From an uncultured bacterium (GTDB taxonomy: Bacteria; Fidelibacterota; Marinisomatia; Marinisomatales; UBA1611), in the NCBI GenBank assembly GCA_943788175.1, contig CALSPG010000005.1, positions 519,250-583,249 of the forward strand: a DNA stretch of 64,000 nucleotides. Reading direction: 5' to 3'. The number at the start of each line of letters is the position of its first letter. Position 1 is the first letter of the stretch. Below the pieces are notes generated by a model. That model was not told where the DNA came from and did no database searches. It worked only from the letters and a program-made list of their open reading frames with translations. Positions 2,095 to 29,561 of this stretch are shown one piece after another. Position numbers and translations under genes: made by a program.

Positions 2095-3262
2095 ATGACT
2101 AATAGACCAACAAAGAATAGCAATCTAGAACTGAACCTCTCTGAAGAAGAGAAGCCTAAAGAAAGTTTCAAGGTTACTTTACAAAAACCTTCAAAAATAA
2201 AAGAGTTTTTAGACTCTTACGTTGTTGGTCAAGATTATGCTAAGAAGACAATCTCCGTAGCCGTATATAACCATTACAAACGTATAATTAATCAGTCTTA
2301 TGAATCTGGCGTTGAATTAGATAAAAGCAATATTTTGCTCATAGGTCCAACAGGTACCGGTAAAACTTTGATAGCTCAAACGTTAGCCCGTTTCCTCTCT
2401 GTGCCATTTGCGATAGCTGATGCAACTACCTTTACAGAAGCTGGATATGTAGGAGAAGATGTTGAAAACATTTTGGTTAGGTTGCTCCAGGTGTCTAACT
2501 ACAATGTTAGTGCTGCCGAGAAGGGAATTGTTTATATTGATGAGATTGATAAAGTTGGCAGAAAATCTGCAAGTACTTCGATTACTCGTGATGTTAGCGG
2601 AGAAGGGCGTTCAACAAGCCCTACTCAAAATAATTGAGGGTTCTATAAGCAACATTCCGCCAAAGGGAGGACGCAAGCATCCCGAGCAAAGTTTAATATC
2701 AATAGATACTTCAAATATTTTATTTATTTGTGGAGGTTCTTTTTCTGGGCTTGAAGACATTATCCAAAAGCGTACTGGAAAAGGAGAGCTGGGTTTTAAT
2801 TCTATCAAAAATGAAAATATTAAAGACGGTTCGAATGTTTCTGATATGTATAATATATTTAAATCTGTGAGGCAGCGAGACCTTGTTGAATTTGGAATTA
2901 TTCCTGAGCTTATTGGTCGGTTACCAGTGGTTTCAACTATGAGTAATTTATCTGATTCCGAAATGTTGAAAATTTTGACAAAACCTAAAAATGCTCTGAT
3001 AAATCAGTATAAAAAACTATTTCAGATGGAGGATGTAGAATTAATCTTTGAGAAGTCTGCACTAAAAAAAATTGTTGAGTTAGCACAAAAACGTAATTCA
3101 GGCGCAAGATCTTTAAGGGCTGTCCTCGAGGAGAGTTTGATGGATCTGATGTACGAAGTCCCTGACATGAATAAACCTGAAAAAATTATTATCAGCGAAG
3201 ATTTTGTATCGGGAATTCTAGGTTCGTCAGGCCTAAAAGAGATCCAGAAGAAGTCGGCTTAA
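2095..3262 (+). CDS. clpX: ClpX ATPase, split by a +1 frameshift at 2605-2607 (probable sequencing error); lacks the N-terminal zinc-binding domain
   Basis: Walker [19 protein letters not shown], Walker B YIDEIDK; removing one G from GGG 2605-2607 restores [17 protein letters not shown] and LGF loops and GARSLR lie in the second frame. Confidence 0.93.
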
Positions 3263-3400: not shown

Positions 3401-5602
3401 ATGTTGAATAATAAAAATCTATCTAAATTTCTAGTATCTTTGATTGTCGTTATAATTTTTCAGAATTGTGAAGAGCCAAAAAACGATGAAGATTCCGACT
3501 TAGAAACTTACAGAAACACATTACAGAGTCAGTCTGTTGGGGATGGCAGTACGGGCTCTATTGACGATTATTTTTATAACTTTGATAACTCGTATGATGC
3601 GAAGTATTTAAAATACTCTAAATCTAAATTTAGTACTTCCTATGATAAATTTTTATCGTCCTATCCATACCCTCCTGATTATATGACGATGAAAAATTTC
3701 CCAGACTATTTACTCGATATCTCTCCTGATTCAGGGCAATTTTTAATTCGTAATCCTATTGATACTTTAGTAATTGCGTCAGACACGATTACTTCGGATA
3801 TTGGTAAAATAGTTCAAGACTCAATTTCCTTAGTATCTTCTCAATTTAAAAATTTGGAGTCTGTTGAATGGGATTTAGAGGCAGAGCCATCGCTTCAGAG
3901 ATACAGGTTAAGAAACTCAGGTTGGGTTCAAGAGGATACAATGTTGTACTATGCAGATACTTTTGACGTTAAGTCTTATTGGGCAGTTGTTGATACACCT
4001 TTGATCGATATGGGCTTTATGTTTGTTGATACTTCAGAGTGGCAGGACACAAGCTACTCATTTATAAAAGATGATTTAATCGTCTTCACCAATAATTTCG
4101 AGTTTACAAGGACCCAAATGCATGTTGATTCTTTAATATTTAGGATTAATACTGACTGTAATGATAATAACCAGTGGGATCAGGCTGAGCTTGGAGTTGC
4201 TGACTATAATAATGACGGGGATATGAAGGACATATTTTTCGAAAATAACGATAATTTTGATTACAATGGTGACGGCAATTTGGATGATATTATCTATGAA
4301 TTTATTGACAGAGGAAATGATATCTTAGACCCAGCTGAAACCTATTATGACGTTAACGAAAATGGGGTTTATGATATTGGAGAACCCTATGAAGACAGGA
4401 ACTGTAACAATGGGTGGGATGCCGCAGAACTAATTGATAAAGGAAATGGTCAGTATGATGATATTGAAGAATATACTTCCAAAGATTCTGATGACGATGG
4501 CAATGCGGAAAAGTATTTATATAAAATTGGCTCTGTTCCCAATAATATTTTGGTAGATTGGACAGATTCAGATAATCCGGAGTTACTTCTCAATATAAGT
4601 ATTGGTGATAGTGTTACAAATAGGTGGGGAAACGTTTATCAAAACATTATAGAAACTGTTTCATTTGTTGACACGAAAAGAAAAGAAGTCGGGGATATTG
4701 ACTCTCTGGTGACTCTTTATACAAATGATGTAGTTGGCTACATTGATGATAGTTCTCAGCAGCCTGGAGATTTCTATGTAACAAAAACCGAGTTGCTTTC
4801 TAATCGTATAGGGGATGATGGATTAAGAGTCGATTATGATTATCAAATTTTTTCAAAAGACCAGCATATAAATCAGCATTTATATAAGAGTTATTTTTTG
4901 CCACTAGGGTTTTATTGGAGTGAATCTCAAGTCAATCAAGGTTTCTGGCACAAAACACAATTAGAAAAAGATATTTATTTATATTCCTACAATGGTCTAT
5001 TTCGAGATGGTGAGCATGTAGATACCGCCTATTATGACACGACTGAAATAGCTGTGTACCTAATGCAGAAGTCATTTGAGGTTGAGAAAGCTGAAATAAC
5101 AGTTCCAGCAGCAAAAATCAAAGCAATATATAACAATGGATCATATAGATGCCTTAGGGATGAATCAATAGCTGATTTTGAAGAAGATTGCCCTCAAGTA
5201 GATACGACATTTGTTGATTGTTTTAAAATTACAACTACAACGAATATGACTATGATGGGTTCTGGTGTTGAATATGGTCAAAAAGTTTACACCTGGCTTG
5301 CAAAAGACCATGGTATAGTAAAAAGCGATCTCTACATTCGTTGGACAGAAAGTCCATATGCTGACTCATTTTCTTCCGGTGAGGTGGATGAGAATGGACA
5401 AACATGGTCGGGGTATTCAAGAATTGAGTTAGCTGAAATTAATGTAAATAAATCTGGCAACGTTTTTAGACAAATATATAATCCCGCTCAAGTAGTCAAA
5501 AAAGAAAATTTTAAAGACCTGCCTGATTTTAATTATGACGCATTTAAAATAAGTAATCAGAGCGGTTTCCATACGATTGATATGCGTGAGTTTGTTGAAT
5601 GA
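3401..5602 (+). CDS. Acidic lipoprotein with DxNxNG putative Ca-binding repeats
   Basis: Signal peptide ending IIFQNC (lipobox-like Cys23); tandem D-x-N-x-N/D-G-x-W/Y-D-x-x-E motifs at about aa 250-370; overlaps the start of the TBDR gene. Confidence 0.7.
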   Translation: MLNNKNLSKFLVSLIVVIIFQNCEEPKNDEDSDLETYRNTLQSQSVGDGSTGSIDDYFYNFDNSYDAKYLKYSKSKFSTSYDKFLSSYPYPPDYMTMKNFPDYLLDISPDSGQFLIRNPIDTLVIASDTITSDIGKIVQDSISLVSSQFKNLESVEWDLEAEPSLQRYRLRNSGWVQEDTMLYYADTFDVKSYWAVVDTPLIDMGFMFVDTSEWQDTSYSFIKDDLIVFTNNFEFTRTQMHVDSLIFRINTDCNDNNQWDQAELGVADYNNDGDMKDIFFENNDNFDYNGDGNLDDIIYEFIDRGNDILDPAETYYDVNENGVYDIGEPYEDRNCNNGWDAAELIDKGNGQYDDIEEYTSKDSDDDGNAEKYLYKIGSVPNNILVDWTDSDNPELLLNISIGDSVTNRWGNVYQNIIETVSFVDTKRKEVGDIDSLVTLYTNDVVGYIDDSSQQPGDFYVTKTELLSNRIGDDGLRVDYDYQIFSKDQHINQHLYKSYFLPLGFYWSESQVNQGFWHKTQLEKDIYLYSYNGLFRDGEHVDTAYYDTTEIAVYLMQKSFEVEKAEITVPAAKIKAIYNNGSYRCLRDESIADFEEDCPQVDTTFVDCFKITTTTNMTMMGSGVEYGQKVYTWLAKDHGIVKSDLYIRWTESPYADSFSSGEVDENGQTWSGYSRIELAEINVNKSGNVFRQIYNPAQVVKKENFKDLPDFNYDAFKISNQSGFHTIDMREFVE

Positions 5603-8600
5603 TTATTAGACTTATATTATTAGCTTTTATCTATTTTTCTGGTTTTGTTATTGCTGGGACAGACGGAACTATTCGAGGTAAAGTTTCTGATGAGGACTCG
5701 ATGGAGTTGCCGGGGGCGACTATTTATCTTCCTGGTTTGGGCGTTGGTGCAGCCGCTGATGTAAATGGTAATTTTATTATTCTAAATATACCAGTTGGTA
5801 AGTACGATGTCGTCGTTCAAATGGTGGGTTATCAAAAGAAAACATATAAAGAAGTTCATGTTGTGATGGATCAAACGGTTTGGCTAAATCCAACTTTGCC
5901 AGTCGCGGCCGTTGAGGGTGACGAGGTAGAAGTTTTAGGCACGAGGCCTTTGGTGGAGAGAGGCAGTACCTCGAAAAAAATCACGGTGGATAAAGAAGCC
6001 ATTCAGTCTTTGCCTATTCGAGATATGTCTGAGCTATATTCTCTTCAATCGGGTGTTGTAAAAGTTGAGAGTAAAACTAGGGGCATTCCTAACCAGGAGG
6101 AAAGAGGCCTTGAAGAAGTTCACGTTCGAGGTGGTAGGTCTGGAGAAATCGCTTACATGATTGATGGTATGTATATAAGAAATCCAATTTTTGGTGGTAT
6201 TGGTTCTGGCACAAGGTTGAACCTATTTGCAATTAATGAATTTGATTGGCAACCAGGCGGTTTCAATGCAGAATATGGTGATGCAATGTCTGCGGTTTCA
6301 AATTGGCACACCTCATCTGGTGGCGAAAACATTGAATACCATTTTGAATACGAGACTAGTTTGGTTGGTGCTTTTTTGAATGAGCTTCGTGGTAAAACAA
6401 AAGATACTGAAAACTTTGATAAGCTAAGGGGTTTGAATGATTACAATTTTGGTATTGGTGGTCCAGTATTGGGGATCCCGAAATTAAGGTTTTGGTTCAG
6501 TGGCCAACATACAACAGAAGAAAACTATAGTGTGTATGAATTTGATGACCGTGTTTATTTAGGTGAAGACCAAGATCTACTACTGGATACCTTAGCATTA
6601 AACAAAGCTAATTTAGTAAATCCTTGGGATAATATATCAGGTTTTAGAGGGTTTGGTTTTGATAAGACTACGGATATTTTTACAAAATTAAGTTATAAAT
6701 ACTCTGGTAAATTAAGATTTCACCTAAGTTATTGGAGAGTTGCAAACCATTTGCAAGCTTTTAATGCTAGATATCTTTATTGGGATGAGGGTAGAAATGA
6801 ATTGTTTCGTGATACGTATAGGGTGAATTTTGAAATAAATCACTCTCTGACCCCAAAAACTTTTTATACAGTTCGTTTTGCTCGTTTCATTCAAGATCAG
6901 TTTCAGGGGGTTCGCTGGAGAGACAATGACAACGATGGTTTCCCGAATTGGTTTGAATGGCGGCATGCAGCTGGGAACAAAGATATTTCAGATCCAGAAA
7001 ATTCTAATGTGGTCCCTTACAGAATTGGCGAGGATGGAGATACGGTTAGATACACTAATAGAGATGATATAAGCGGTTGGCATGTAGGTGCAACTCCAGG
7101 CATGTGGAATTGGGAGTCTGCAGAAAAATTCGACGATTCTAATGGTAATGGCGTCTGGGATGTGGGTGAGAGCTTTACGGATTGGGATAACGATGGCTCT
7201 TGGGATGGCCCAGAACTAGTTAAAGAGCTAGAATATAGAGACGATAGTTATTGGCTTGAGCCTGAGATGTATGAAGATTATGAGCCATTTTTAGATTATA
7301 ATAGTATTAGATTGCAATTTGAAAATATTCCAGGGAACTCCAGAGCGCCTGTTAATACGCCTTGGGATCCTGAAAACATTTATTATTACATGCCAACGCC
7401 ACAAGGTGATGTTTGGGAAGAAGGAAGAGCTTTTGGTGGGCACGATAATTTTTATGCAGATTCCAGAGCTGTCACTGATGAGGTCCGAATCGATCTTACT
7501 TCTCAAATATCTGATAAATGGAAAGCGCGTTGGGGGTTCGACTATAAATATCATAGACTGAATTTTTATGAAATTATTAGTCCTTGGCTTGGTCAAGCAG
7601 CTTCTAGGCAAACTTTTGCAGAGTATTGGCAAGATACTGGACCAGATGGATTATTACCTATTGATAGCGGCTACGTTAACCCAGATATAGGTGAAAACAA
7701 TGGTAAGTGGGATGAGGGAGAAGACTATTCTGACTCAAATGAAAATGGTAGATGGGATAACTACAGAGAACCAGAAGAGTTTTCAGCTTACATGCAAAAT
7801 ACTTTTGAGGTTCCATGGATGGTTATTAATTATGGTATACGCATAGATGCCGTAAACTATAATACTCAAATATGGGCCGATACTTCAGGAAAGTATACTC
7901 CGGGTACGCCATGGTATTTTTCTGATTTGAATGATAATGATGTATGGGACAGTAATGAAGAAGTAAGTACCTTGGCAGGGTTGCCAAGACAAAAAGTGAT
8001 ACTTAAAAGTGCAGATTGGTTCTATAAGATAAGTCCGCGAATAGGTTTCAGTCATGTTATCACAGATAAGTCGACATTTACTTTTAATTATGGTCTTTAT
8101 TATCAAACTCCAAAATATCAGAATATCTATTTAAATACGAATAGGATGGAAGACCCTGAAGAACTGTTTGAAGAAGGTAATGGTGAGGTTGGTAACGCAA
8201 CGATGAATGCACAAAGAACCCAGTCTTACTCAGCTGGTTTTAACGTGCAAGTTGGGCAAAATTGGTCTTATTCTCTAATGACTTGGGTGAAAAACATGGA
8301 TCAGTTAACTAAAAATACGTTCCAGCGTTCTGGTGTTTATTCTTATAATATTAGTGAAAATGGAGATTATGGTAGTGCAAAGGGTATAGATTTAACATTG
8401 AAGTTTAGAGGTCGTGCATTTGGATCGCAGTTGCAGTATACGTATTCGATAGCAAAGAATAACAGTGAATACCCTTGGGCAAATGTTAGTGGTCAATATG
8501 TAGATGCTCCGAGTCAAGAGTCATTGCAGTTTTACGATAGGCCTCATGATCTAACATTCTGGTTTTATACTGGGTTGCCATTCGGTATCAATGCAGCTGT

Positions 8601-8976
8601 AACTGCCTTTTACCAAAGTGGGGGTCCTTATACTCCTTATATATTCGCAGGAAAAGACCCGAAACCTGATGAGAGGAATATAAACACTAATAGAGGGCCT
8701 GCTTTTAAAAATGCAAATTTAAATTTTAGTAAATATGTTTCCATTATGAATCATAGGGTAAGTCTTGGTTTGAGTGTCTATAATTTTTTAGATATAAGAA
8801 ACGAAGTAGATGTCTGGCCACTGACTGGCAAAGCTGATGACCCCGGCGCCTACTATACAGATAGGGTTGGGTTGGCTGATTCAGAGCACTATTTATCCAG
8901 CGCATATTATGATCGTCCTTGGCGCTCTTCTCAGCCTAGAGAAGTTAATTTCAATGTGAGGTTTGATTTTGATTGA
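5599..8976 (+). CDS. TonB-dependent receptor with N-terminal carboxypeptidase-regulatory-like domain
   Basis: GTDGTIRGKV..D...LPGATI, plug motifs HVRGGRSGEIAYMIDG and GGFNAEYGDAMS, SPRIGFSH, terminal strand PREVNFNVRFDFD. Confidence 0.9.
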   Translation: MIIRLILLAFIYFSGFVIAGTDGTIRGKVSDEDSMELPGATIYLPGLGVGAAADVNGNFIILNIPVGKYDVVVQMVGYQKKTYKEVHVVMDQTVWLNPTLPVAAVEGDEVEVLGTRPLVERGSTSKKITVDKEAIQSLPIRDMSELYSLQSGVVKVESKTRGIPNQEERGLEEVHVRGGRSGEIAYMIDGMYIRNPIFGGIGSGTRLNLFAINEFDWQPGGFNAEYGDAMSAVSNWHTSSGGENIEYHFEYETSLVGAFLNELRGKTKDTENFDKLRGLNDYNFGIGGPVLGIPKLRFWFSGQHTTEENYSVYEFDDRVYLGEDQDLLLDTLALNKANLVNPWDNISGFRGFGFDKTTDIFTKLSYKYSGKLRFHLSYWRVANHLQAFNARYLYWDEGRNELFRDTYRVNFEINHSLTPKTFYTVRFARFIQDQFQGVRWRDNDNDGFPNWFEWRHAAGNKDISDPENSNVVPYRIGEDGDTVRYTNRDDISGWHVGATPGMWNWESAEKFDDSNGNGVWDVGESFTDWDNDGSWDGPELVKELEYRDDSYWLEPEMYEDYEPFLDYNSIRLQFENIPGNSRAPVNTPWDPENIYYYMPTPQGDVWEEGRAFGGHDNFYADSRAVTDEVRIDLTSQISDKWKARWGFDYKYHRLNFYEIISPWLGQAASRQTFAEYWQDTGPDGLLPIDSGYVNPDIGENNGKWDEGEDYSDSNENGRWDNYREPEEFSAYMQNTFEVPWMVINYGIRIDAVNYNTQIWADTSGKYTPGTPWYFSDLNDNDVWDSNEEVSTLAGLPRQKVILKSADWFYKISPRIGFSHVITDKSTFTFNYGLYYQTPKYQNIYLNTNRMEDPEELFEEGNGEVGNATMNAQRTQSYSAGFNVQVGQNWSYSLMTWVKNMDQLTKNTFQRSGVYSYNISENGDYGSAKGIDLTLKFRGRAFGSQLQYTYSIAKNNSEYPWANVSGQYVDAPSQESLQFYDRPHDLTFWFYTGLPFGINAAVTAFYQSGGPYTPYIFAGKDPKPDERNINTNRGPAFKNANLNFSKYVSIMNHRVSLGLSVYNFLDIRNEVDVWPLTGKADDPGAYYTDRVGLADSEHYLSSAYYDRPWRSSQPREVNFNVRFDFD

Positions 8977-11900
8977 TGTTTTCAAGAAAAATATGTTTTT
9001 AATTACTCTTTTTATTTTCGCATCTTTGGTTGTCGCCGGGTCTGAAAAATATGAGCGTGATCAAGTGGTGGACCCATATCGAAATAGTGCTGCTGCGCGT
9101 ATAGGAGATCACCCTTTTCCGACAAATCCAATGAATGACAGGGCTATTGGTTATTTATTGCAAGGAAAAGTCAATAATGGAATATCAAATTATGGCAATC
9201 TAATTAATTGGGACGAGCAACCTGCTGGTTTATGGGGAGATTATTCATATTTGCCCTCTGTCGCTTTCTTAGCAGGCCTTCCAGGGCATAAAAAGACATC
9301 TGCGTTTCAATGGTCTCAGCTCGAGTCAGTCGTTGATTCCGAAGGCAATGTGATTTATAGTATTTGGGAATCCCAAGGTGCCTACGAATCGTGGTACGCA
9401 AATGGAGATACTAATTATGTAGGTATCCTTTTTAATGCAGAAGATGATTTCGGTAAGTGGGATCCGGATAGTATATCAAAAAAATCATCCATAGATGATC
9501 TAACGGATGCCTACCAGTGGGTTGAGGATACAAGATAATAGTAGCATAATTATAAGCACTCTTGGTGAAAATGATCCAAACAGTTCTTCCGCTAGAATCG
9601 GATTCATTCATCCTTGGGCTTTAAGGCCTAAACTGAAAAGTCGTGAAGACCAATTTGATTTATATGACTATGGCAGTGACCAAGAAGAGTGGACTAAAGA
9701 TGATAACTTGTTTTACTATGGTGCTACAGCTTCAGAATCATGGTTTACCAGGAACGACCCTTCATTCAATACTGATTGGCACGCCAGTACAATGTCTAGG
9801 ACAAATACGCACAACCTAGACGTGACCGCCGGTGATTTATTTGGTGATACCTATGTGACAGATAGTGAGGACACATATCCTCTTTTAGCTCATAGTGATT
9901 ATTCAAGTACTTGGCCAACGAGATTCAACACGTAACAGCGACCAATGAGTCCTTCTGGCCTGGGTCTTGGAGTCAAGATTACAATACGTTTTTACCGGGC
10001 TGTGATAACTCAAGAAAAGATCCCGATTGCTGGGAGGAAGTCCCGGGTCGTTTTGTGTCAGATATGGATGTGTATATGGAATTTGACGATAGGTGGGCGC
10101 ATCGTGGGAATGTAGTTAATACAAATAATGAGTACGAAACAACCGGTTACCCCATGGGTCTAAAGGTTATGGCGACTGCTCATTCTTATGGCGTCTCTTA
10201 TGCCGAAGATATTATGTTTGTTACTGTCAAGGTTCGAAATGAAAGTGGTGATTGGTGCGCTAAGGATGAATATGGCGTCCCTGTACTGGATAGTGAGGGA
10301 AATCAAATTTGTGGGGAGGGTATGATTATGCCCGATGGAACCAAGTTGAATCGTGGAAAAGGTTTTGATTACAAGGATATGTCGTTGGGTTTTTATATGG
10401 ATGCAGATGTATTGATGGGCGATAAAGGAGGTTATAATTCTGGACTCCATACTAATGATGACGATTTTATGAAATATTATTATGAGTTTTTTGAATTAAA
10501 TGATGAAAGATTATCGGTTAGTCTTGCAATGATTGGTGATTATGATGGGTTGTCTGGTCTTCCTGGTTATGCTATGGATCCTGATAGTCCTAGCCCTGGT
10601 AATAGTTACGGCGTTGTTGCTACTCAAATGTTAGATTCTCCTCGAGCTACTACAGAAATAGATTTAGATCAGGATGGGACTACGGATATTTTTCCAGGCG
10701 AGCCTTTAAAAATGACTGATTGGCACTGGTTTGATTGGTATAGTAGACCGGGTGTTACGCAGGCAGAAGGTAATTCGAGTGGTTGTAATGCTGGGTCTCC
10801 TGGATGTCCTCAAGCTAGAAATAAAGAAGAAATTCTTTATAAAATAATGACAGGCGACACTACAAATTTAATGCCGGATGAGCATGAATGGTATTTTCAT
10901 ACGCCTAATCCAGGTACAGATCTAGGTTCAGAGCTTAATCCTCATTTTGATTCATTAGAGGGTCTGAAAGAAGAACCTGCTTTTTTAAGAGAGCCTGATG
11001 GTTTGGATTGTGTGTTGATTCTAAGTTGTGGTCCTTTTGATTTACCTGTCGGAAGAGAAGTTCCATTTTCTTTTTGCATCATCTTTGGTCAAAACGAAGA
11101 AGACTTAATTAATAACGCTAAATTTGCTCAAGTTATGTACAACTCTCGTTATCAGGGTTTTACACCGCCAACGAGACCAACGGTTCATGCTGTTACAGAG
11201 CAGGGGAAAGTAAAGCTATATTGGAATGACCATGCAGAATCATCTACTGATGTAGTTACTGGATATGCTGACTTTGAAGGTTATAAAATTTATAAAAGTA
11301 TTGATGGCGGAGAATCTTGGGGAAAGCCAAGCGATATGATTTACGATGCAGATGGTATTTTTGTTGGATGGCAACCTTATTCTCAATATGATTTATCTGC
11401 TGAAGAAGATTCTCTTCACTGTACTTACTCAAATAGTTTCGATTGTGATGAAAAAAATTCTCGTGGGCACGCAATAAAAGGGCAAGACCCCTATTCTCCT
11501 TGGTTTAACCTTGGTTCTGATACTGGTTTCGACTTAATCCGTTTAGACGAGCCTTATGTCGTTGATGGAGATAGTTTTCAATACGTTTTTGAGGACGATG
11601 ATGTTGTGGACGGTCTTGAGTACACTTACTCAATAGTAGCATATGACATGGGCGTCGAGCCTCCTTATAAGACAGTTTATGAACCTATAGGGAATGGTCA
11701 ATTCAATGCAGTTGTTGATACGAACTATTCAAACCCCGATCAGTGGGCAAGTCCTGAGGGCTACACATATATTGAAAATTCTAGGGGAACTACAATTTTA
11801 GATAGAAATTTTGTTCAAGTCTACCCTGGTGTTCAGCCTCAGGCAAGCTTAAAGAACGTTGGCGTGGTTCCTAATCCTTATATAGTCAGGTCTGGTCACA

Positions 11901-12139
11901 ACGAAACCACTTTTAATAGAAAAATTAAGTTTAACAATCTCCCTTCACAATGTATGATTAGTATTTATACAGTAACAGGTGAGTTAGTATCTGAATTTGA
12001 GCATCAAAGCATAACTAATGGTTATGCATGGTGGGATATGCGAACGGTAAATAATCAAGAAGTTGCTCCGGGTTTGTATGTTTTTCACATCAAGGGTGCA
12101 GGTGAAGAGAAGGTTGGAAAATTTGCGGTGATACGATGA
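8963..12139 (+). CDS. Large secreted protein (cargo 1) with FN3-like domain and PNPY...KFAVIR C-terminal sorting-like domain; split into three ORFs by two indels (~9530 and ~9928); start may be ATG 8993
   Basis: ORFs 8963-9538, 9507-9935 and 9911-12139 join as ...YQWVED/QDNSSII...WPTRFN/VTATNESFWPG; hydrophobic signal FLITLFIFASLVVA; DFEGYKIYKS; C-terminus VVPNPY..IKFNNLP..IYTVTGELV..WWD..APGLY..KFAVIR. Confidence 0.75.
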
Positions 12140-13154
12140 GTAAGTTTTTTGCACTTTTCTTTGTTACTGTCTCTCTTTCTGTTGGCCAGTTTCGTGATAT
12201 TCCAGAGGTCGTGACAAAGGTAGCGACATCAACGGCTAATTGGTTAAAATTAGAAACATCTGCTCGTGCAATTGGCATGGGTGGATCGCATGTTGCTTCT
12301 GGAAGAGGTATCGCTGGTATTCCTTACAATCCTGCTAGTGCAGCATTTATTGAACGTAGCGAAGCTTATTTTTCAAGTGTGAACTACATCGCTGGTATTC
12401 AGCATGGTGTACTTAGTTATGGTAAGAAGGTTGGACCTTCTGATTTTGTTGGTCTTCATTTATTTTACTTAGATAGTGGCCCGATGGCTGTAACGAACGA
12501 ATATTATCCCGATGGTACTGGAGAGGATTTTAGAGTTGTTTCTACTGCTTTTAGAACAACGTATGCTCGCAAGATGACAGATCGATTAAAAGTAGGTGGT
12601 TCATTAAACTATATTCGAGATGTGATTTATGAAGCTGATATGCAAGCTCTGGCGTTTGATATTGGTTCTAATTTTGACACCGGTATCTACGGAGTTATGC
12701 TTGGAATGAGCATTGCAAATTTTGGTCCTGAAGTACAATACAATGGTGAGAGTTTACATATTACTGTTCCAGATACTATTGATGTTGATGAGCGCGTGAG
12801 TAAGATAACAACGAAGTTTCCACTGCCACTAGTATTTAGGCTTGGCATTGAAAATGAAGTTGTTGGCTCCGAATAGTGTCTTTGTAAAACATCCTCAGCA
12901 TAGCTTGAAGATTAGCATCGATGGCATCAAGCCAAATGATTATACTGTTTACGGGACGATGGGCATGGAGTATAGTTGGCAAAATCTTGCTTTCGCTCGT
13001 TTGGGTAGTCACTTAGGTCATGATACGGCGGGGTTAAGTGCAGGGGCTGGGTTAAGGCTAAGGCTTGGTAAGATGGTAGCCGTTGTAGATTATGCTTTTG
13101 TGGATTATGACTTATTAAAAACAACACATCAAGTCTCTATGGGGATTGAGTTTT
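12101..13154 (+). repeat. Direct repeat A, copy 1 (~1.05 kb: last 12 codons of cargo plus entire PorV gene)
   Basis: Matches 16489-17541 at offset 4388 (4387 after the indel); differences seen by eye at 12543, 12952, 12955, 12958, 13012 plus one extra C. Confidence 0.97.
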
Positions 13155-13156
13155 GA
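12136..13156 (+). CDS. PorV/PorQ-family (UPF0164-like) outer-membrane protein, copy 1; extra C at 12869-12870
   Basis: WLKLETSARAIGMG, YNPA, AFDIG, NFGP, LPLVFRLG, terminal Phe; the intact copy at 16524 reads GGCTCGAAT where this copy reads GGCTCCGAAT. Confidence 0.85.
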
Positions 13157-16100
13157 TAAAGGTCCTTTCTTTTGTAGTTTTATATTCTTTTTTAGTTCTC
13201 AGCTTTACAGTCAGCAATGTGTCTCAAATGCGGGCATAGATAAAACTGTATGCGGTGGCAAGAAAGTAGGAAGTAATTACAGAGTTTATTTAGATGGTTC
13301 TGATTCTTATATTTTGAATGGATCTATTAATTATGAATGGTCATCTCTGGATGATGGTATCTCTTTTTCAAGCAGTCAATCAAGAAGAGCAGAACCCTAT
13401 TTTAATTATCCTCAGGACCTCGATCAGGATAAGGAGTTTAGAATAGAATTAAGAGTTTATGAAGACGATGAGGCATGTGAAAGCGTCGACACGGTACTTG
13501 TTGTTTGCAAGGCAAATATGTGTCCTATTCCTGATGTGGGAGAAGATTTTAAAGTCAGTAGCGGTTGCGATTTAACAGTTTCACTTGATGCGTCTGGCTC
13601 TGTTGACCCGGATGATTCTAATATTAATTATTCTTGGTCTTCTTTAAATGGCCTTGATGCAAACTTGCAAAATAGTAATTCTTCTGTAGCTACTTTTAAC
13701 TTTCCGATGATATCCTCCGAAGCAAGTTTACAGTTTTGCTGTTGCTTTGGATGATGGTGAAAATTTTGTATCTGACACGTTAGCGGTTACTTATTTAAAA
13801 AATTCCTCGCCGGTAGCTGATGCGGGTGCAGATTTTACTACATGTGATTACCAATTTAAGTTGACATCAAAAAAATCATATGATAAAGATTGGAATTCTC
13901 TTTCTTATTCATGGTCACTAATTAATGGTGACTTAGTAATGGAAGGTGAATCAATGCCGGAAATTTTGGTTACATCTCCTTTGGACTTAGAACAAAATAC
14001 AGACTTTCATTTTGAGCTTGCAATCACTGAAACTATTGCAGGTGAACAGTATTGCACTGATAAGGATACTGTGGTCGTTACGATTAGAAAAAATATTTGC
14101 CCAATTGCTGATGCTGGTGGAAATATTCGAGTTCCTAAATTTGATAACAATCCGGTTGTTTTGAGTGCTGTTAATTCATTAGATCCTGATGGAGAAGGTC
14201 TTATTTTTTCGTGGACGGGTGACAATGGAGAGGTCATTAACGATGTTGAGGTTATTGTCAATGATCCAAATCCAGACTCTTTATATTCAAAATATAATTA
14301 TAAGCTAAGTGTCACAGATAGTGAAGGTTCATTTTCAATCGATAGTGTTTCAGTTATTTTTGGCAATTTTTCTAAACCTAATGCGCCAAAGATTTTTGCA
14401 GTTGCTGACCACAAGAGAGTTCTTGTCTCGTGGGATGCTAGTGCTGAAACTTCTATTGACTCATTAACTGGATATGCTGACTTTGAGGGCTACAAGTTAT
14501 ATCGTTCAATTGATGGTGGTGTAACTTGGGGAGGGAATGAGGATAAGTTATATGATTTTGATGGCAATTTTATCGGTTGGATTCCCTATGCCCAATTTGA
14601 TTTAGATTATGAACAAGATATAAACCACTGTATTTATACCAGTGCAGATTGTGATAGTGATGAGCCAAAAAGGAATGTTTCAATATCTGGTTTAGATCCC
14701 TTTGCACCTAGGTATAGCCTGGGTGTTAATTCTGGTATTCAATATGCGTATGTTGATTCGAATGTTGTTGACGGTATTGAGTACACGTATACCATTTGTG
14801 CTTATGATATTGGATTAGAGCCTTTTGAAATGGCTTATATATTAAATGACTCAACTCAAACTTATGATTCCGATACGGTTTGGGCTGGAACAAATCCGGA
14901 TAAATTTATGGGTCCAGAAATGCTTAATTACTATAATATTAATGGTGGTTTCATTCGGTCTACTCCAAATCCAAACCGTGGCTATCCATATCTTGAAACT
15001 GATAAGGGTTCTTCTCCGCTCGACAATAATTTTATTACTGTAGTCCCCGGTTACACACCAAGTAATATTTCTTTTCCAGATGAGAGTGATATCGAGGCAA
15101 TTTTCTTATCTGATTCTAATAATATAGGTACAGGTGAAAGAGGATATTTTATAGTAGATAGAGGTGAAATATCAGCAGGGAAAATTTTAAAATATGAAAT
15201 AAAAGCTAACCAAGGTATGGATGCTATTGATGGCATTGCTACTGAGGACCCAATGCTTTATGTTTTTGAAGTTCTAAATGATGGTTCTCCAAAATATTCT
15301 AATTCATACGATCCCCAGACTTTAACTTTCTTTGAAAATGATTCGCTTGAAAGATTGCCAGGGTCAATTCTTGAATCTTCAAATCTTGTTGTTCCTGAAT
15401 TTCAATTAATCCAACCTTTAGATCGATGGAGCGATATGATGGATGGTATCCGCTTTAGATTTGATAATGCGCTTCCATTAAGCCCTTCTGCTCCTCCGAT
15501 CCTAGAACCTTCAAAATATTTGCTTTACAATGCTGACGAGTCTGAATTTGACTCTTTACAATTTGCTCAGTGGATTTATGTTGATAATATTGAAATTGAG
15601 TTATCATATACAAATTTAGCTAGCTATATGCGCAGGTTGAATTTTGATTACGAAATAGAGTTTTTTTCAGAGGCAATAGGTGATTCAGTGTTCGTTGGGT
15701 ATGGTATGATGGGTCTTCCTTTTAGAATTACAAATTTATATACAGGTAAAAAAGTTGGGGTTACTTGTTTTGATTTGGGTACAAATAATAATCCGTCTGA
15801 GGGCTCTGAAAACGGTGTTGGAGATTTAAGTTGGACTAAAGGTGAAGAAATTGCCTTCATTGGTGACACTGTATCCATTGCTGGGCAAGAGCTTTCAAAA
15901 TATAATTTCAATTTAAAAATTAATTATCGAATCAGGACTGGGGAGCAGTTTAGTAAGGCATGGTCTCCAGCTATAGAATATTCAGAAAATGATACTGTGT
16001 TTTTTAATCAAATGTTTTGGATTACATCTGCAATATCAAAAAACATTGAACCCTCGACTCCATACATTGATGAGAATAACGATGGAGTTAATGATAATTC

Positions 16101-16527
16101 ATGGAAACCAATTTATCCTTGGAAAAATGGTGACAAACTTATTTACGGTCCTTCAAAGTTTTTTGAAGACGGAGATAATTGGGTTTCAGATATGAGTGTA
16201 CTCGGAAAAGTATCAACTGTCGCTGATACCACATTAGATACAATTAAAGTCGTACCAAACCCATATATCGTAAGGTCTCGATTTAATGAGACTGCGATAT
16301 CTAGAAAATTAAGATTCACAAACTTACCTCAAGAATGCAGAATTAGAATTTATACGGTCACTGGAGAATTAATAAGGGTCTTGGACCATGTAAATCAGTT
16401 TGATGGTAATGAGTGGTGGGATTTAAGAACTGCAAATAACCAAGAAGTTGCTCCAGGATTGTACATTTATCATGTTGAGAGTACAAATGGTGAAGAGAAG
16501 GTTGGAAAATTTGCGGTGATACGATGA
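13146..16527 (+). CDS. Large secreted protein (cargo 2): PKD-like repeats, FN3-like domain, PNPY...KFAVIR C-terminal domain; +1 frameshift at ~13720
   Basis: PKD-type motifs SNAGID, CPIPDVG..LDASGSVDPD, PVADAGAD, CPIADAG..SLDPDG; frames join as ..MISS/QVYSFAVALDDG; DFEGYKLYRS; same C-terminus as cargo 1. Confidence 0.78.
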
Positions 16528-17541
16528 GTAAGTTTTTTGCACTTTTCTTTGTTACTGTCTCTCTTTCTGTTGGCCAGTTTCGTGATATTCCAGAGGTCGT
16601 GACAAAGGTAGCGACATCAACGGCTAATTGGTTAAAATTAGAAACATCTGCTCGTGCAATTGGCATGGGTGGATCGCATGTTGCTTCTGGAAGAGGTATC
16701 GCTGGTATTCCTTACAATCCTGCTAGTGCAGCATTTATTGAACGTAGCGAAGCTTATTTTTCAAGTGTGAACTACATCGCTGGTATTCAGCATGGTGTAC
16801 TTAGTTATGGTAAGAAGGTTGGACCTTCTGATTTTGTTGGTCTTCATTTATTTTACTTAGATAGTGGCCCGATGGCTGTAACGAACGAATATTATCCCGA
16901 TGGTACTGGAGAGGATTTTAGAGTTGTTTCCACTGCTTTTAGAACAACGTATGCTCGCAAGATGACAGATCGATTAAAAGTAGGTGGTTCATTAAACTAT
17001 ATTCGAGATGTGATTTATGAAGCTGATATGCAAGCTCTGGCGTTTGATATTGGTTCTAATTTTGACACCGGTATCTACGGAGTTATGCTTGGAATGAGCA
17101 TTGCAAATTTTGGTCCTGAAGTACAATACAATGGTGAGAGTTTACATATTACTGTTCCAGATACTATTGATGTTGATGAGCGCGTGAGTAAGATAACAAC
17201 GAAGTTTCCACTGCCACTAGTATTTAGGCTTGGCATTGAAAATGAAGTTGTTGGCTCGAATAGTGTCTTTGTAAAACATCCTCAGCATAGCTTGAAGATT
17301 AGCATCGATGGCATCAAGCCAAATGATTATACTGTTTATGGTACAATGGGCATGGAGTATAGTTGGCAAAATCTTGCTTTCGCTCGTTTGGGTAGTCATT
17401 TAGGTCATGATACGGCGGGGTTAAGTGCAGGGGCTGGGTTAAGGCTAAGGCTTGGTAAGATGGTAGCCGTTGTAGATTATGCTTTTGTGGATTATGACTT
17501 ATTAAAAACAACACATCAAGTCTCTATGGGGATTGAGTTTT
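16489..17541 (+). repeat. Direct repeat A, copy 2
   Basis: Near-identical to 12101-13154; identity starts at GGTGAAGAGAAG and ends at the stop codon (TGA vs TAA). Confidence 0.97.
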
Positions 17542-17543
17542 AA
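16524..17543 (+). CDS. PorV/PorQ-family (UPF0164-like) outer-membrane protein, copy 2 (intact)
   Basis: 339 aa, signal peptide, ARAIGMG/YNPA hatch motifs of FadL/PorV-like barrels, amphipathic strands, C-terminal Phe; ATGA overlap with the cargo stop. Confidence 0.88.
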   Translation: MSKFFALFFVTVSLSVGQFRDIPEVVTKVATSTANWLKLETSARAIGMGGSHVASGRGIAGIPYNPASAAFIERSEAYFSSVNYIAGIQHGVLSYGKKVGPSDFVGLHLFYLDSGPMAVTNEYYPDGTGEDFRVVSTAFRTTYARKMTDRLKVGGSLNYIRDVIYEADMQALAFDIGSNFDTGIYGVMLGMSIANFGPEVQYNGESLHITVPDTIDVDERVSKITTKFPLPLVFRLGIENEVVGSNSVFVKHPQHSLKISIDGIKPNDYTVYGTMGMEYSWQNLAFARLGSHLGHDTAGLSAGAGLRLRLGKMVAVVDYAFVDYDLLKTTHQVSMGIEF

Positions 17544-17636
17544 TTTTCTGATGACTTGCTTTTCTCATCTTCAATAGAGTATTTTTTTATATAGAGCACA
17601 GATTTTTTTTATTTACAACGTTCAAAGAGGTATAAT

Positions 17637-19931
17637 ATGAAAATAAAGTTATTCATTATCGTTTCTTTGGTTGCTTTCTTAGTAGCCGATGACTCTAAAA
17701 CTGAAAAAACCACAACTGCTCCGCTTCAAGTTGAAGATAGTATCCCCGTGGCTGAAGCTAAAGAGAGGAGTTCTGCTCATACTAACTCTAGGGAATCAAG
17801 CTTCGCTTCCTTTAAAATTGATAGTTCTAAAAATGGTTATGGTGGATTTTTAGAGACAACTAGTCCATTAGCCTACTCTTATGATGCTAATAATGATGGA
17901 GATAATGCAGGGTGGGTAGCTGTATATAGGCAATTTGGAACGATGGATGAAACGGCAGGATTTCTAGGGGTTGCCCAGTCTGGACCTGATGGTGAAGAAT
18001 GGACTGTGGATAGTAGAATTAATACAACTTATCCCGAAAATCAAACGTATACGCTTGCAAATCCTGGTCTTCCGACCCCAGATGGTGCACCTGGTGCTAG
18101 ATACCCGAGTGCTGTTGTCTCCTCTTTTCAAAATAAACCAATGGCAGTATGGAATGAATATACGTTAGCGACTTATGGCGGAGGCGAGAGTGGTGGCGTT
18201 CCTATGTTTGCATATGATGTTTTCCCTACGGGTGAACTTTCAAATTTTTCGCCTATTCAACACCTAAATAAAGGGTGTGTAAATTTAAATTTAGCTGGGG
18301 GTGAAGTTTGTGATCCACCTGACCTATGGCAAGCCAATGTTCAACTAATTGATAATGATAATTCTAACGGCGGTCCTAGGTTGTTAGCAATGTATACTAG
18401 CTGGGCTGGTGATACTTATCCTAAATACATGATTAAGAGTACTAATGTAGCAAATGGCTATGTAATTGCAGATGATCCAAATTATATCCAACAAGACTCT
18501 CTAGATCAAGACGATCAAGGTAATTGTGTTTGGTATGAATGTGGGGGCTATACTGGTACGCCAGATTTCCATGTAAATAGAGATGGCATTGGTTATTTAG
18601 GTATGAGTTCTTTCTCTGCTGATAGTGATACAGAGCCGCCTTTTTCACATACTATTTTCTTTAAACAGACAGAAGATTATGGCGCTACTTGGACATCAGA
18701 AGGTGGTCTCAAGAACTCTGGATATTATTATTTATCAGATGATAAATTATATGAACTCCATGACTCATTGCTGACTTTATGGTCTACGAACCCAGACGAT
18801 TATCCAGGTAAGCCGTGGTACCCTTGGGCTACTAACTCTGAAGGTGAAGTTGTTGGTGATACTATTCAGTTTTTTGAGGATACTACTAGCCTAGGTGAAC
18901 AAATCAATTACTTTAACACTGCTGAGTATTTTGTACATTACGAATATGATATCATGACAGATCAAGATGGTGGTTTGCATTTTACAGCAATGTCTTGGCC
19001 ATATCTATGTGAAGACATAGAAGGTGGTTGTGCTGATTACATATTTGACGGAGATTTAGAGGTTTCCGGTTCTGATTCAATATCTTTAGATAATCGTTTT
19101 GTTGGAGCGGGGATGTATCATTATTATAATCCTAACCCGGTGGATAGTCCAAACGCTTGGACAGCAACTTTTATAGAAGATTATTCTGAAGCATTTAGCG
19201 CTGACTGGCCGGCTACTGGACCAATGACTTTATATTCAGATCCTGAGTTTTTCTTTACTCCGAATGTTAGACCAAGCTATGAAGAAGGCAGTCAGGTTTT
19301 ATGGTATGCGTCTGTAAATATGTCTAGCACCTCTTGGGATGCTGATTCGGCTCTTCAAACGCCAAATGATTTAGATATCTTTATGTCCAAATCAGTTGAT
19401 AATGGTAGGACATGGACAGAAGCAGAAAATGTTACAAATACCTTAGGTACGGAAGGTTTCCCACAGGTTGAATATGGACATCATCTTGCAAATATTGGTT
19501 CTGATTATGAAATTGGTATTTTTTATCAAATGCCAAATTTTAATTTTGAAACATATCCGCCTGCAACTGGCTATTATGACTATATGAACTATGTTTATGT
19601 AGGTAAATATGAAAATGACTTAGAGTCATTAAGCACTATAGGTGGCAAGGATAAAAAAATCATTCCTAGTTCTTTTGTTTTAAAACAAAACTACCCCAAT
19701 CCTTTCAATCCAGTCACGAAAATAAGCTTTGGGATAGATGTAAGTTCGAATGTTAAGCTATCCTTGTATGATGTTCGCGGAGGTTTTGTTGAGACTTTAA
19801 TAAATAAAAAGACTCAAGCGGGTAATCATGATTTTATGCTTGATGCTTCTCATCTGGCTAGTGGCGTATACTTTTATACGATGACGGTAAATGAGGTCAG
19901 TCAAACTAAAAAACTAGTTCTTATGAAATAA
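17637..19931 (+). CDS. Secreted acidic protein with Asp-box motifs and T9SS type A-like CTD
   Basis: Signal peptide; TEDYGATW and SVDNGRTW; C-terminus LKQNYPNPFNP..LASGVYFY..KKLVLMK; RBS AGAGG. Confidence 0.8.
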   Translation: MKIKLFIIVSLVAFLVADDSKTEKTTTAPLQVEDSIPVAEAKERSSAHTNSRESSFASFKIDSSKNGYGGFLETTSPLAYSYDANNDGDNAGWVAVYRQFGTMDETAGFLGVAQSGPDGEEWTVDSRINTTYPENQTYTLANPGLPTPDGAPGARYPSAVVSSFQNKPMAVWNEYTLATYGGGESGGVPMFAYDVFPTGELSNFSPIQHLNKGCVNLNLAGGEVCDPPDLWQANVQLIDNDNSNGGPRLLAMYTSWAGDTYPKYMIKSTNVANGYVIADDPNYIQQDSLDQDDQGNCVWYECGGYTGTPDFHVNRDGIGYLGMSSFSADSDTEPPFSHTIFFKQTEDYGATWTSEGGLKNSGYYYLSDDKLYELHDSLLTLWSTNPDDYPGKPWYPWATNSEGEVVGDTIQFFEDTTSLGEQINYFNTAEYFVHYEYDIMTDQDGGLHFTAMSWPYLCEDIEGGCADYIFDGDLEVSGSDSISLDNRFVGAGMYHYYNPNPVDSPNAWTATFIEDYSEAFSADWPATGPMTLYSDPEFFFTPNVRPSYEEGSQVLWYASVNMSSTSWDADSALQTPNDLDIFMSKSVDNGRTWTEAENVTNTLGTEGFPQVEYGHHLANIGSDYEIGIFYQMPNFNFETYPPATGYYDYMNYVYVGKYENDLESLSTIGGKDKKIIPSSFVLKQNYPNPFNPVTKISFGIDVSSNVKLSLYDVRGGFVETLINKKTQAGNHDFMLDASHLASGVYFYTMTVNEVSQTKKLVLMK

Positions 19932-20025
19932 GTTTTTTAAAGTTGTCAAAATATTTAAAAATTACTTTTTAAGTGTTTTGTGTCTTTGAATCGTATATTT
20001 GTTAAGAAATAAAATCTAAAGTAGT

Positions 20026-20059
20026 AAAGTGGGAAAGTCTAATAGCTTTCCCACTTTTT
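20026..20059 (+). terminator. Intrinsic terminator-like hairpin
   Basis: 12-bp stem AAAGTGGGAAAG / CTTTCCCACTTT with 8-nt loop, followed by T run, between 19931 and 20085. Confidence 0.7.
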
Positions 20060-20084
20060 GATTTAATAAAGTAGGAAAAATAAA

Positions 20085-22985: not shown

Positions 22986-22991
22986 GAGTGC

Positions 22992-25808: not shown

Positions 25809-25816
25809 AGGTCTCA

Positions 25817-28519: not shown

Positions 28520-28610
28520 ACAAGTTTAGTTCTTTCAAAAAGATTTAAGATTGTGACTAATCCTGTTTATCTATTAAATTAAATTTTATGAATTATCACA
28601 ATAGTAGGAC

Positions 28611-29561
28611 TTGGGAATGAAAATGAATAAAATATTTATATTTTTAGTATCTTTATCAATTGCAGTGACATCAGTATCTGCTGATATTGAGTGTCCTTCA
28701 GATTCAGCGTATCATGTTGATATGAGAACTATGCTTCCTGATGGTAGTCCAAATCCTTCTTATGGTCAACAGATTTCAACAGGCCTGTGCGCTTGCATAA
28801 CGTTTGGAAATGGCGTTGAGATTAATGGCAATAATATAACGTTCACAATTAATATTGTCGATAATGAGCCAATCAGGGGAATTGAATTAGATATCTACCA
28901 TGACTCTAACGACCTTACTTATTCTAGTGTTACTAGAGGTCAAAAACTTCAAGGACTTGTTAATGATGAAGGTAATCCGACTTCTGATATGACAATATTG
29001 GGAAATGCTATCGATGATTACGTCAAAATTCTTGCTTACAGTGTAAATAGAGCTCGAACAGCAGGCAATGGCGAAGAAGGAGACTTGTTGCATTTGACTT
29101 ATACTCTAGCTGATGGTGCAACTTTGCCAGAAAATATTTCTTTTCATTTTTCAATTGTCAATATACCGGGGACTAGTTTAAATCCGGAATTGCTAAATGT
29201 GGTTTGTGGTTTCCCAGGTGAAGATAGCCCGATTGCTGTTAGCACGGTTACAGCGTCTTCTGAGGATGATCAATTTCTTCCAAAAGAATTTGCGCTATTT
29301 CAAAATTATCCAAATCCGTTTAACCCAAATACTCAAATATCCTTTAACGTTCCAACTGCAGAGTTTGTTACTTTAAGAGTCTACAATCTTTTAGGGCAGG
29401 ATGTTAAAATGTTAGCTAATAAAGTAATGAGTCCAGGTAAGTATACCTTTGAGTGGAACGGTACAGACTTATTAAATAATGATGCAGCATCTGGCGTATA
29501 TTTTTATGAACTGAGAGGTGAAACTTTTGTCTCTAGGAAGAAAATGTTGTTAATTCGTTAG
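28611..29561 (+). CDS. Secreted protein with cohesin-like beta-sandwich and T9SS type A/FlgD-like CTD (start may be ATG 28617 or 28623)
   Basis: Signal peptide; NEPIRGIELDI..GEEGDLLHLTY pattern; LFQNYPNPFNP..WNG..ASGVYFY..KKMLLIR. Confidence 0.72.
   Translation: MGMKMNKIFIFLVSLSIAVTSVSADIECPSDSAYHVDMRTMLPDGSPNPSYGQQISTGLCACITFGNGVEINGNNITFTINIVDNEPIRGIELDIYHDSNDLTYSSVTRGQKLQGLVNDEGNPTSDMTILGNAIDDYVKILAYSVNRARTAGNGEEGDLLHLTYTLADGATLPENISFHFSIVNIPGTSLNPELLNVVCGFPGEDSPIAVSTVTASSEDDQFLPKEFALFQNYPNPFNPNTQISFNVPTAEFVTLRVYNLLGQDVKMLANKVMSPGKYTFEWNGTDLLNNDAASGVYFYELRGETFVSRKKMLLIR

Follow-up and report, generated by a model that had tools for sequence, protein, structure and literature searches.

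A receptor, cargo and barrel cassette in Marinimicrobia: a candidate uptake system without SusD in which a type IX partner may dock on a PorQ-like barrel

How could a TonB-dependent receptor (TBDR) be supplied with substrate at the cell surface when no SusD-like protein is encoded beside it? The question is raised by a stretch of 64,000 nucleotides (nt), here called the window, from an uncultured bacterium of the Marinimicrobia (the phylum also named Fidelibacterota or Neomarinimicrobiota), the group to which the names given to homologs assign it; its genome comprises 2.27 Mb in 12 contigs and is 92% complete. Positions 3401-17543 of the window carry genes for an acidic lipoprotein, a TBDR, and twice in succession a large secreted protein, here called the cargo, followed by an outer-membrane barrel of the PorV/PorQ family. 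All coordinates are those of the window, and open reading frames (ORFs) were read with translation table 11. Marinimicrobia belong to the most abundant bacteria in the dark ocean and, to our knowledge, their route of polymer uptake is not known. The answer we propose, which in our estimate has a little better than an even chance of being right, is that a surface partner exported through type IX secretion and held on a PorQ-like barrel feeds the TonB-dependent receptor.

In the proposed mechanism, each cargo would be exported via SprA, and its C-terminal tail, which resembles those of PorZ and PorU, would probably not be cleaved. Held on the loops of the PorQ-like barrel of the adjacent gene, as PorZ is on PorQ, the tail would tether the cargo at the outer membrane, next to the receptor. 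The variable head of the cargo, which is a supersandwich in cargo 1 and consists of PKD repeats in cargo 2, would bind or process the substrate and pass it to the receptor, while the acidic lipoprotein may be an additional surface component in the type of cassette found in the window. The six genes are as follows, three of them being read through frame breaks.

3401-5602, + strand: acidic lipoprotein (lipoA), 733 amino acids (aa), whole
5599-8976, + strand: TonB-dependent receptor, 1125 aa, whole, with long acidic loop insertions
8963-12139, + strand: cargo 1, about 1058 aa with its breaks read through, in pieces 8963-9538, 9507-9935 and 9911-12139
12136-13156, + strand: barrel 1, PorV/PorQ family, 339 aa when read through, in pieces 12136-12876 and 12842-13156
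13153-16527, + strand: cargo 2, about 1123 aa with its breaks read through, in pieces 13146-13754 and 13747-16527
16524-17543, + strand: barrel 2, PorV/PorQ family, 339 aa, intact

The arrangement is not confined to this locus. The genome has four TBDR-cargo-barrel cassettes; the cargo genes and the cassette-type barrels number 5 each and the cassette-type receptors 4, three paralogs of the window receptor leading the other cassettes. Within the phylum, the cargo family was found in 147 of the 151 sampled genomes, and the cassette is usually present in several copies per genome. A survey with one genome per species gave 79 loci from other genomes (15-row alignment), four loci without a cargo ORF longer than 1500 nt being excluded. 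These loci cover about ten phyla, including Marinimicrobia, KSB1, Calditrichota, Ignavibacteria, Bacteroidota (Rubrivirga among them), Gemmatimonadota, Cloacimonetes, WOR-3, Eisenbacteria and others. The receptor lies directly 5' of the cargo in 41 of 62 assessable loci and the barrel directly 3' of it in 33 of 57; both flank the cargo in 27 of 48, and the gene order is thus conserved well beyond this genome, a point on which an earlier note made from the letters alone had let its proposal depend. Furthermore, receptor, cargo and barrel all find their best match in the same cassette type of this genome in 24 of the 28 complete cassettes (12 of the window type and 12 of a second type), and therefore the three genes have diverged as a unit. 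Full-text searching found no description of this layout in the literature; the accessible text of the Caldithrix genome paper mentions vitamin receptors only.

A variant order was observed in other phyla (L051, L054, L061 and L082), where the receptor is followed by the barrel, one gene of about 0.9 kb and a shorter cargo.

The cargos share an FN3-like core and a PorZ/PorU-like tail. Preceding them are a supersandwich head in cargo 1 and PKD-like repeats (K319L-like PKD domains) in cargo 2, the latter being the sole Pfam family matched by the two cargos. The core just before the tail is the most conserved part of the family, and the heads vary among members. The fold comparisons for cargo 1 use an AlphaFold2 model of its ortholog P0121 (91% identical), which has a predicted local distance difference test score (pLDDT) of 83.8 and a predicted template modelling score of 0.81. 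Its last 100 residues align with the PorZ tail (5m11_A) at Z 11.5 and a root-mean-square deviation (rmsd) of 2.8 over 87 residues with 31% identity, and with the PorU tail (6za2_B) at Z 10.1 and rmsd 2.2 over 84 residues. The modelled tail therefore has the C-terminal domain (CTD) fold of the type IX system, a PorZ/PorU-like beta-sandwich; in a sequence search of the PDB, the PorZ and PorU tails were likewise its sole matches, and the tail of cargo 2 also matches PorZ and PorU. Residues 50-731 of the same model contain a galactose-mutarotase-like supersandwich, whose best match is the N-terminal domain of a glucoamylase (1lf6_A; Z 16.9, rmsd 2.9, 231 residues aligned), followed by the N-terminal domain of a glucodextranase (Z 16.5), and no catalytic (alpha/alpha)6 domain is present in the model. 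When the whole cargo model was searched with Foldseek, only FN3/Ig arrays, PorU and PorZ were matched and nothing for the head, and a search of the ESM Atlas returned unnamed clusters only.

On the organism level, the genome contains SprA (586.9 bits against a cut-off of 200), PorU (583.6 bits against 420) and a general PorV of 465 aa (81.3 bits on the Pfam model), which by sequence assigns a type IX system to this bacterium. The PorU-tail model matches at least 50 places in the genome. A likely PorZ/PorQ pair adjoins SprA (L006:10099-13148) and consists of a 701-aa protein with a CTD-like end followed by a 323-aa barrel of the PorV family.

The assignment of the barrels to the PorV/PorQ family, already made in the earlier note, was borne out by the family model NF033709, on which barrel 2 scores 153.1 bits (cut-off 90). 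This cut-off is exceeded at seven places in the genome, both window barrels among them, and PorV_fam matches both pieces of barrel 1. Barrel 2 is neither PorV proper (NF033710, 52.1 bits against 250; Pfam PF19572, 17.7 against 27) nor PorQ proper (NF033711, 78.5 bits against 220), and its sole match in a PDB sequence search is PorV (6h3i_F, E = 0.0019). A custom model separates the cassette barrels, with at least 331 bits, from the general PorV (85) and the PorQ-like barrel (65).

An interface between the two partners, as the earlier note had expected, was predicted. For barrel residues 18-339 folded with the tail of cargo 1, the score was 0.90, against 0.00 for the best of 3 controls. Among solved complexes, 116 of 157 reach the 0.90 mark, as do 2 of 215 mismatched pairs. 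Contacts agree between the runs to at least 94%, with a pLDDT of at least 81 for the partner. In the predicted complex, a near-invariant Lys of the final strand of the tail contacts barrel residues 86, 88 and 114. A contact of a conserved Lys with a PorV loop is reported for type A tails in the accessible text of PMC10994853, and that of PMC10202324 describes the PorZ and PorU tails as kept on PorQ and PorV, respectively.

The same interface would also suit a barrel that acts as a dedicated shuttle, taking the cargo from the SprA translocon and then releasing it, so that the cargo becomes a free or lipid-attached exoprotein that does not stay beside the receptor. PorV is described as a carrier of type A cargo (PMC10202324 and PMC10994853, as far as their accessible text goes), and the conserved Lys contact recurs in the predicted interface. 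On the other hand, the genome already has a general PorV, the cargo tail is closest to two tails that are retained, those of PorZ and PorU, and a shuttle leaves both the one-to-one count of cargos and barrels and the conserved link to a receptor subfamily unexplained. We therefore regard release of the cargo as unlikely. The earlier note had left the role at shuttle or anchor; an anchor like PorQ for PorZ fits better, and a shuttle fits less well.

If the cargo is retained by its barrel, it could serve as the partner that SusD is for SusC. The window receptor is a TBDR by its domains, with CarbopepD_reg_2 (57.6 bits) and Plug (27.5 bits, cut-off 23.9) over their cut-offs; the three paralogs of the genome also pass for the barrel domain (PF00593 or PF25183), which is not matched in the window copy at E <= 0.01. 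It shares with SusC/SusD and RagA/RagB of Bacteroidota an N-terminal CarboxypepD_reg domain and genes for surface partners nearby, but it is far from these systems otherwise. The SusC/RagA model TIGR04056 gives 41.7 bits against a cut-off of 368, in the N-terminal part only, and no receptor of the genome reaches this cut-off; a PDB sequence search with the receptor returned chance-like matches only. The earlier statement that no SusD-like gene is recognizable holds for the six genes, where nothing matched, and genome-wide, where PF07980 found none in the 92% complete genome while a Bacteroides control was matched. No RagB was found either, and the partner here would be a type IX cargo rather than a lipoprotein lid.

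The lipoprotein itself has an isoelectric point of 4.18, and its homologs show a signal peptide, then a conserved Cys and then acidic residues. It matches no family above cut-off; homologs in Marinimicrobia are 45-100% identical. It is confined to the window type of cassette, and in 12 related loci of this type its gene lies directly 5' of the TBDR. In Bacteroides, BtuB and BtuG are a receptor-lipoprotein pair, and the present locus is similar in that the gene of a surface lipoprotein adjoins that of a TBDR, but there is neither a sequence relation nor a confident fold relation between them. Asp/Asn-rich motifs of the type D-x-N-x-N-G-x-W/Y-D are common to the lipoprotein and the loop insertions of the receptor (3401-8976) and may bind calcium.

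The two barrel genes of the window form the core of a direct repeat:

12101-13157: direct repeat copy 1 (about 1056 nt), roughly the final 35 nt of the cargo 1 gene and the whole barrel 1 gene
16489-17544: direct repeat copy 2, the end of the cargo 2 gene and the barrel 2 gene

Their DNA is about 99.5% identical, with five substitutions and one indel. The near-identity begins about 35 nt 5' of the barrel ATG and ends at the barrel stop codon, and just upstream of it the cargo tails 5' of the two barrels are about 76% identical. The same was found in L018 and L023, two further genomes in which the unit is doubled: each has two barrels that are 100% identical over the same tract, although the figure for L023 may be slightly high since short-read assemblers may collapse near-identical copies. 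The copies within a genome are thus 99-100% identical in all three genomes in which both can be read, but between these genomes the barrel DNA is only 60-65% identical. The second cargo of the window is orthologous to that of L017, L018 and L023 (42-46% identity over about 720 aa), and so the doubling of the unit is old. The barrels have therefore been kept alike since then, which indicates that the pairs evolve in concert by gene conversion, as judged from these sequence comparisons. In addition, one barrel sequence goes with two cargo tails that are about 60% identical. The barrel is therefore not private to one cargo, contrary to the suggestion of the earlier note.

In run X5, the depth of the barrel contig (49.4) is the sum of those of the cargo 1 contig (22.3) and the cargo 2 contig (25.3), as fits two barrel copies per genome. 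An assembly artefact as the origin of the repeat was rejected on this ground and on two others. The doubled layout also occurs in L017, L018, L023, L045 and L046, and one contig of X5 connects the end of barrel 1 to cargo 2, although its barrel part is only 27 letters long. Another X5 contig, of depth 6.6, joins 9450 to 17491 via 35 other letters; it may be a variant or come from another organism.

A wider form of the proposal is more tentative, and we place it below an even chance. Marinimicrobia and many related phyla would feed via an outer-membrane machine in which a special TBDR works, in place of SusD, with a type IX partner that stays docked on its own PorQ-like barrel, and in doubled units the barrels would be kept identical by gene conversion as a fixed docking and recombination module for exchangeable heads. 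Should the cassette work as proposed, it would add to lipid attachment and PorP/SprF a third mode in which type IX cargo is anchored, and it would be a SusD-free design for uptake by a receptor and its partner; it would also give names to a large set of proteins currently labelled hypothetical. The concerted evolution of the barrels, the evidence that the frame breaks are assembly errors or private lesions and the peptidase context are new here.

The repeats also suggest a different role for the cargos, namely a variable surface coat or adhesins, whose units are swapped, gained and lost by recombination between the barrel repeats, for example under pressure from phages or grazers, with the receptor being separate. 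Repeats of 1 kb that are 99-100% identical flank cargo 2 in three genomes, and heads and lengths do vary, the second cargo ranging from 719 to 2594 aa among loci. However, cargo 1 orthologs are well conserved (58-91% identity), and the order of receptor, cargo and barrel is kept across phyla, which makes a coat quite unlikely.

Decidedly improbable, in our view, is that the cargo-barrel pairs are extra PorZ-PorQ attachment modules that process other cargo, the receptor being merely a neighbour. In its favour, PorZ is the best match of the tail, the PorQ model gives the barrel a higher score than the PorV model does, and a separate PorZ/PorQ-like pair adjoins SprA. Against this, the heads are varied (supersandwich, PKD repeats) and without the propellers of PorZ, a genome has five or more copies, and the receptor subfamily diverges together with the pair. 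Hardly credible is a FadL-type channel for hydrophobic compounds with no secretion role. PorV is a FadL homologue (accessible text of PMC12578637) and some barrel homologs give weak FadL/Toluene_X matches, but these are below cut-off while the PorV/PorQ model passes, the barrel always comes after a tail-bearing protein, and an interface with the tail is predicted.

For the reading in which a barrel-held cargo feeds the receptor, PorZ-PorQ and PorU-PorV are accordingly the nearest known systems. The barrels belong to the same family, and the cargo tail is nearest to those two tails in both sequence and fold. The differences are that the cassette barrel is an equivalog of neither PorQ nor PorV, that the heads are unrelated to PorZ or PorU, and that several copies lie 3' of a TBDR; retention of the tail, known for PorZ and PorU, would be expected here by analogy. 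Clustered genes for a cargo and its cognate PorV-like barrel are also described for type B CTDs with PorP/SprF, such as SprB-SprF of Flavobacterium (accessible text of PMC10202324). Unlike in these, neither the type B tail model nor the PorP/SprF barrel model of NCBIfam matches any cargo or barrel at E <= 0.01, and the tail has type A-like motifs.

What the machine would take up is suggested by its neighbours. In a scan of 76 of 147 flanking ORFs at 25 cassette loci, genes for peptidases or related enzymes (M6, S8, M10, M14, M1, M16, M28, gamma-glutamyl transpeptidase) were found in 13 loci and glycosidases in 3, a melibiase in two of them and a GH57 on the other strand in one. Because the neighbours are mostly secreted peptidases, the substrate is more likely a protein or peptide (or glycoprotein) than a plain polysaccharide. 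RagAB imports peptides, which would fit these neighbours. The comparison with a polysaccharide utilization locus drawn in the earlier note is hence weak on the side of the substrate, the neighbours being secreted peptidases and not carbohydrate-active enzymes.

Several findings weigh against the proposal that the tethered cargo feeds the receptor. Neither TBDR nor barrel is present in the available stretch at 8 of the 48 assessable loci, and in 13 of the 48 they are elsewhere or reordered. In six loci (L012, L013, L015, L020, L022 and L030), a close ortholog of cargo 1, about 65% identical to it, stands alone among housekeeping genes, with receptor and barrel absent within 10 kb. The argument for contact between cargo and receptor is their synteny. 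Complexes of PorV with tails have already been solved, and so the score of the predicted complex may reflect no more than likeness to them. The cargos miss the type A CTD cut-off of 23 (TIGR04183/PF18962) with 17.0 bits for cargo 1 and 18.8 bits for cargo 2, and no Pfam type A CTD match was obtained in them at E <= 0.01. The earlier link to type IX secretion, for which sprA and porKLMN had been named, stands for SprA, PorU and the general PorV; GldK/L/M/N were not found. Their models (TIGR03525, TIGR03513, TIGR03517, TIGR03523, PF12081 and PF12080) gave no real match in the 92% complete genome, although they never went over cut-off in the control genomes either; the single GldK match is a domain of the sulfatase-modifying type fused to a peptidase. 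The AlphaFold2 model of the lipoprotein is poor (pLDDT 56.6), and its best match, a Parabacteroides lipoprotein with no assigned role (4fvs_A, Z 9.7), is, like its other fold matches, a lead only at this confidence. Finally, the supersandwich is a fold that usually goes with sugars, and it points away from the substrate that the peptidase neighbours suggest.

We now return to the integrity of the genes. The earlier note had described an operon of six overlapping genes; ten ORFs of at least 100 aa are found on the + strand of 3401-17543. All six genes are at the coordinates given above, with stop and start codons overlapping at 5599-5602, 12136-12139 and 16524-16527, but only the lipoprotein, the TBDR and barrel 2 are whole under table 11, while both cargos and barrel 1 are broken. 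The sizes it gave for the cargos (about 1050-1130 aa) agree with those in our list once the breaks are read through. Promoter and terminator sites were no more numerous than in shuffled sequence.

To characterize the breaks, contigs of one RNA run and of three DNA runs, each DNA run from a different study, were aligned to 8900-17600. In the three DNA runs and the RNA run, each contig that spans a break carries a small indel relative to the window exactly there. In cargo 1, the contigs have one letter fewer than the window at 9531/9534 and one letter more at 9930/9931. In barrel 1, they have one letter fewer at 12867, a site covered by 3 runs, all at full depth. In cargo 2, they have two letters fewer at 13164 and one fewer at 13723, each in 4 of 4 runs. 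With the two letters at 13164 removed, cargo 2 has its first start codon, a TTG, at 13153, where it overlaps the stop of barrel 1. The ortholog P0121, intact with 1056 aa, puts the cargo 1 breaks at about 9532/9534 and 9932/9938. Since the contigs of other samples and P0121 carry the corrected length, the three genes are whole in the population, and the breaks are assembly errors or lesions private to this genome. The first is favoured because the ClpX gene upstream (2095-3262) is also split, into overlapping ORFs 2095-2637 and 2459-3262, another likely assembly indel. An alternative genetic code and a programmed frameshift were ruled out as well: the pieces are in different frames, and therefore the breaks are frameshifts rather than recoded stop codons, and the contigs of other samples show a small indel at each break.

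Six RNA libraries contain 24-63% of the words of the stretch, and the RNA contigs of run X15 span 29 of 30 bins. This is compatible with expression of the stretch, without being proof of it.

Downstream of the locus, a further group of type IX proteins is encoded:

17637-29561, + strand: five type A CTD proteins, one with an InhA-like MAM domain and two with M43 peptidase and FG-GAP domains

The InhA-like MAM and CTD protein lies at 20085-22985, and positions 22992-28519 hold the two tandem paralogs, each combining an M43 metallopeptidase, an FG-GAP propeller and a type A CTD. At 30822-35903, 13 kb 3' of the locus, a complete rRNA operon (16S, two tRNAs, 23S and 5S) explains a rise in G+C content. 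At 37159-43248, a FecR-like gene, an unannotated gene of 939 aa and a CHASE2-adenylate/guanylate cyclase gene follow in a row.

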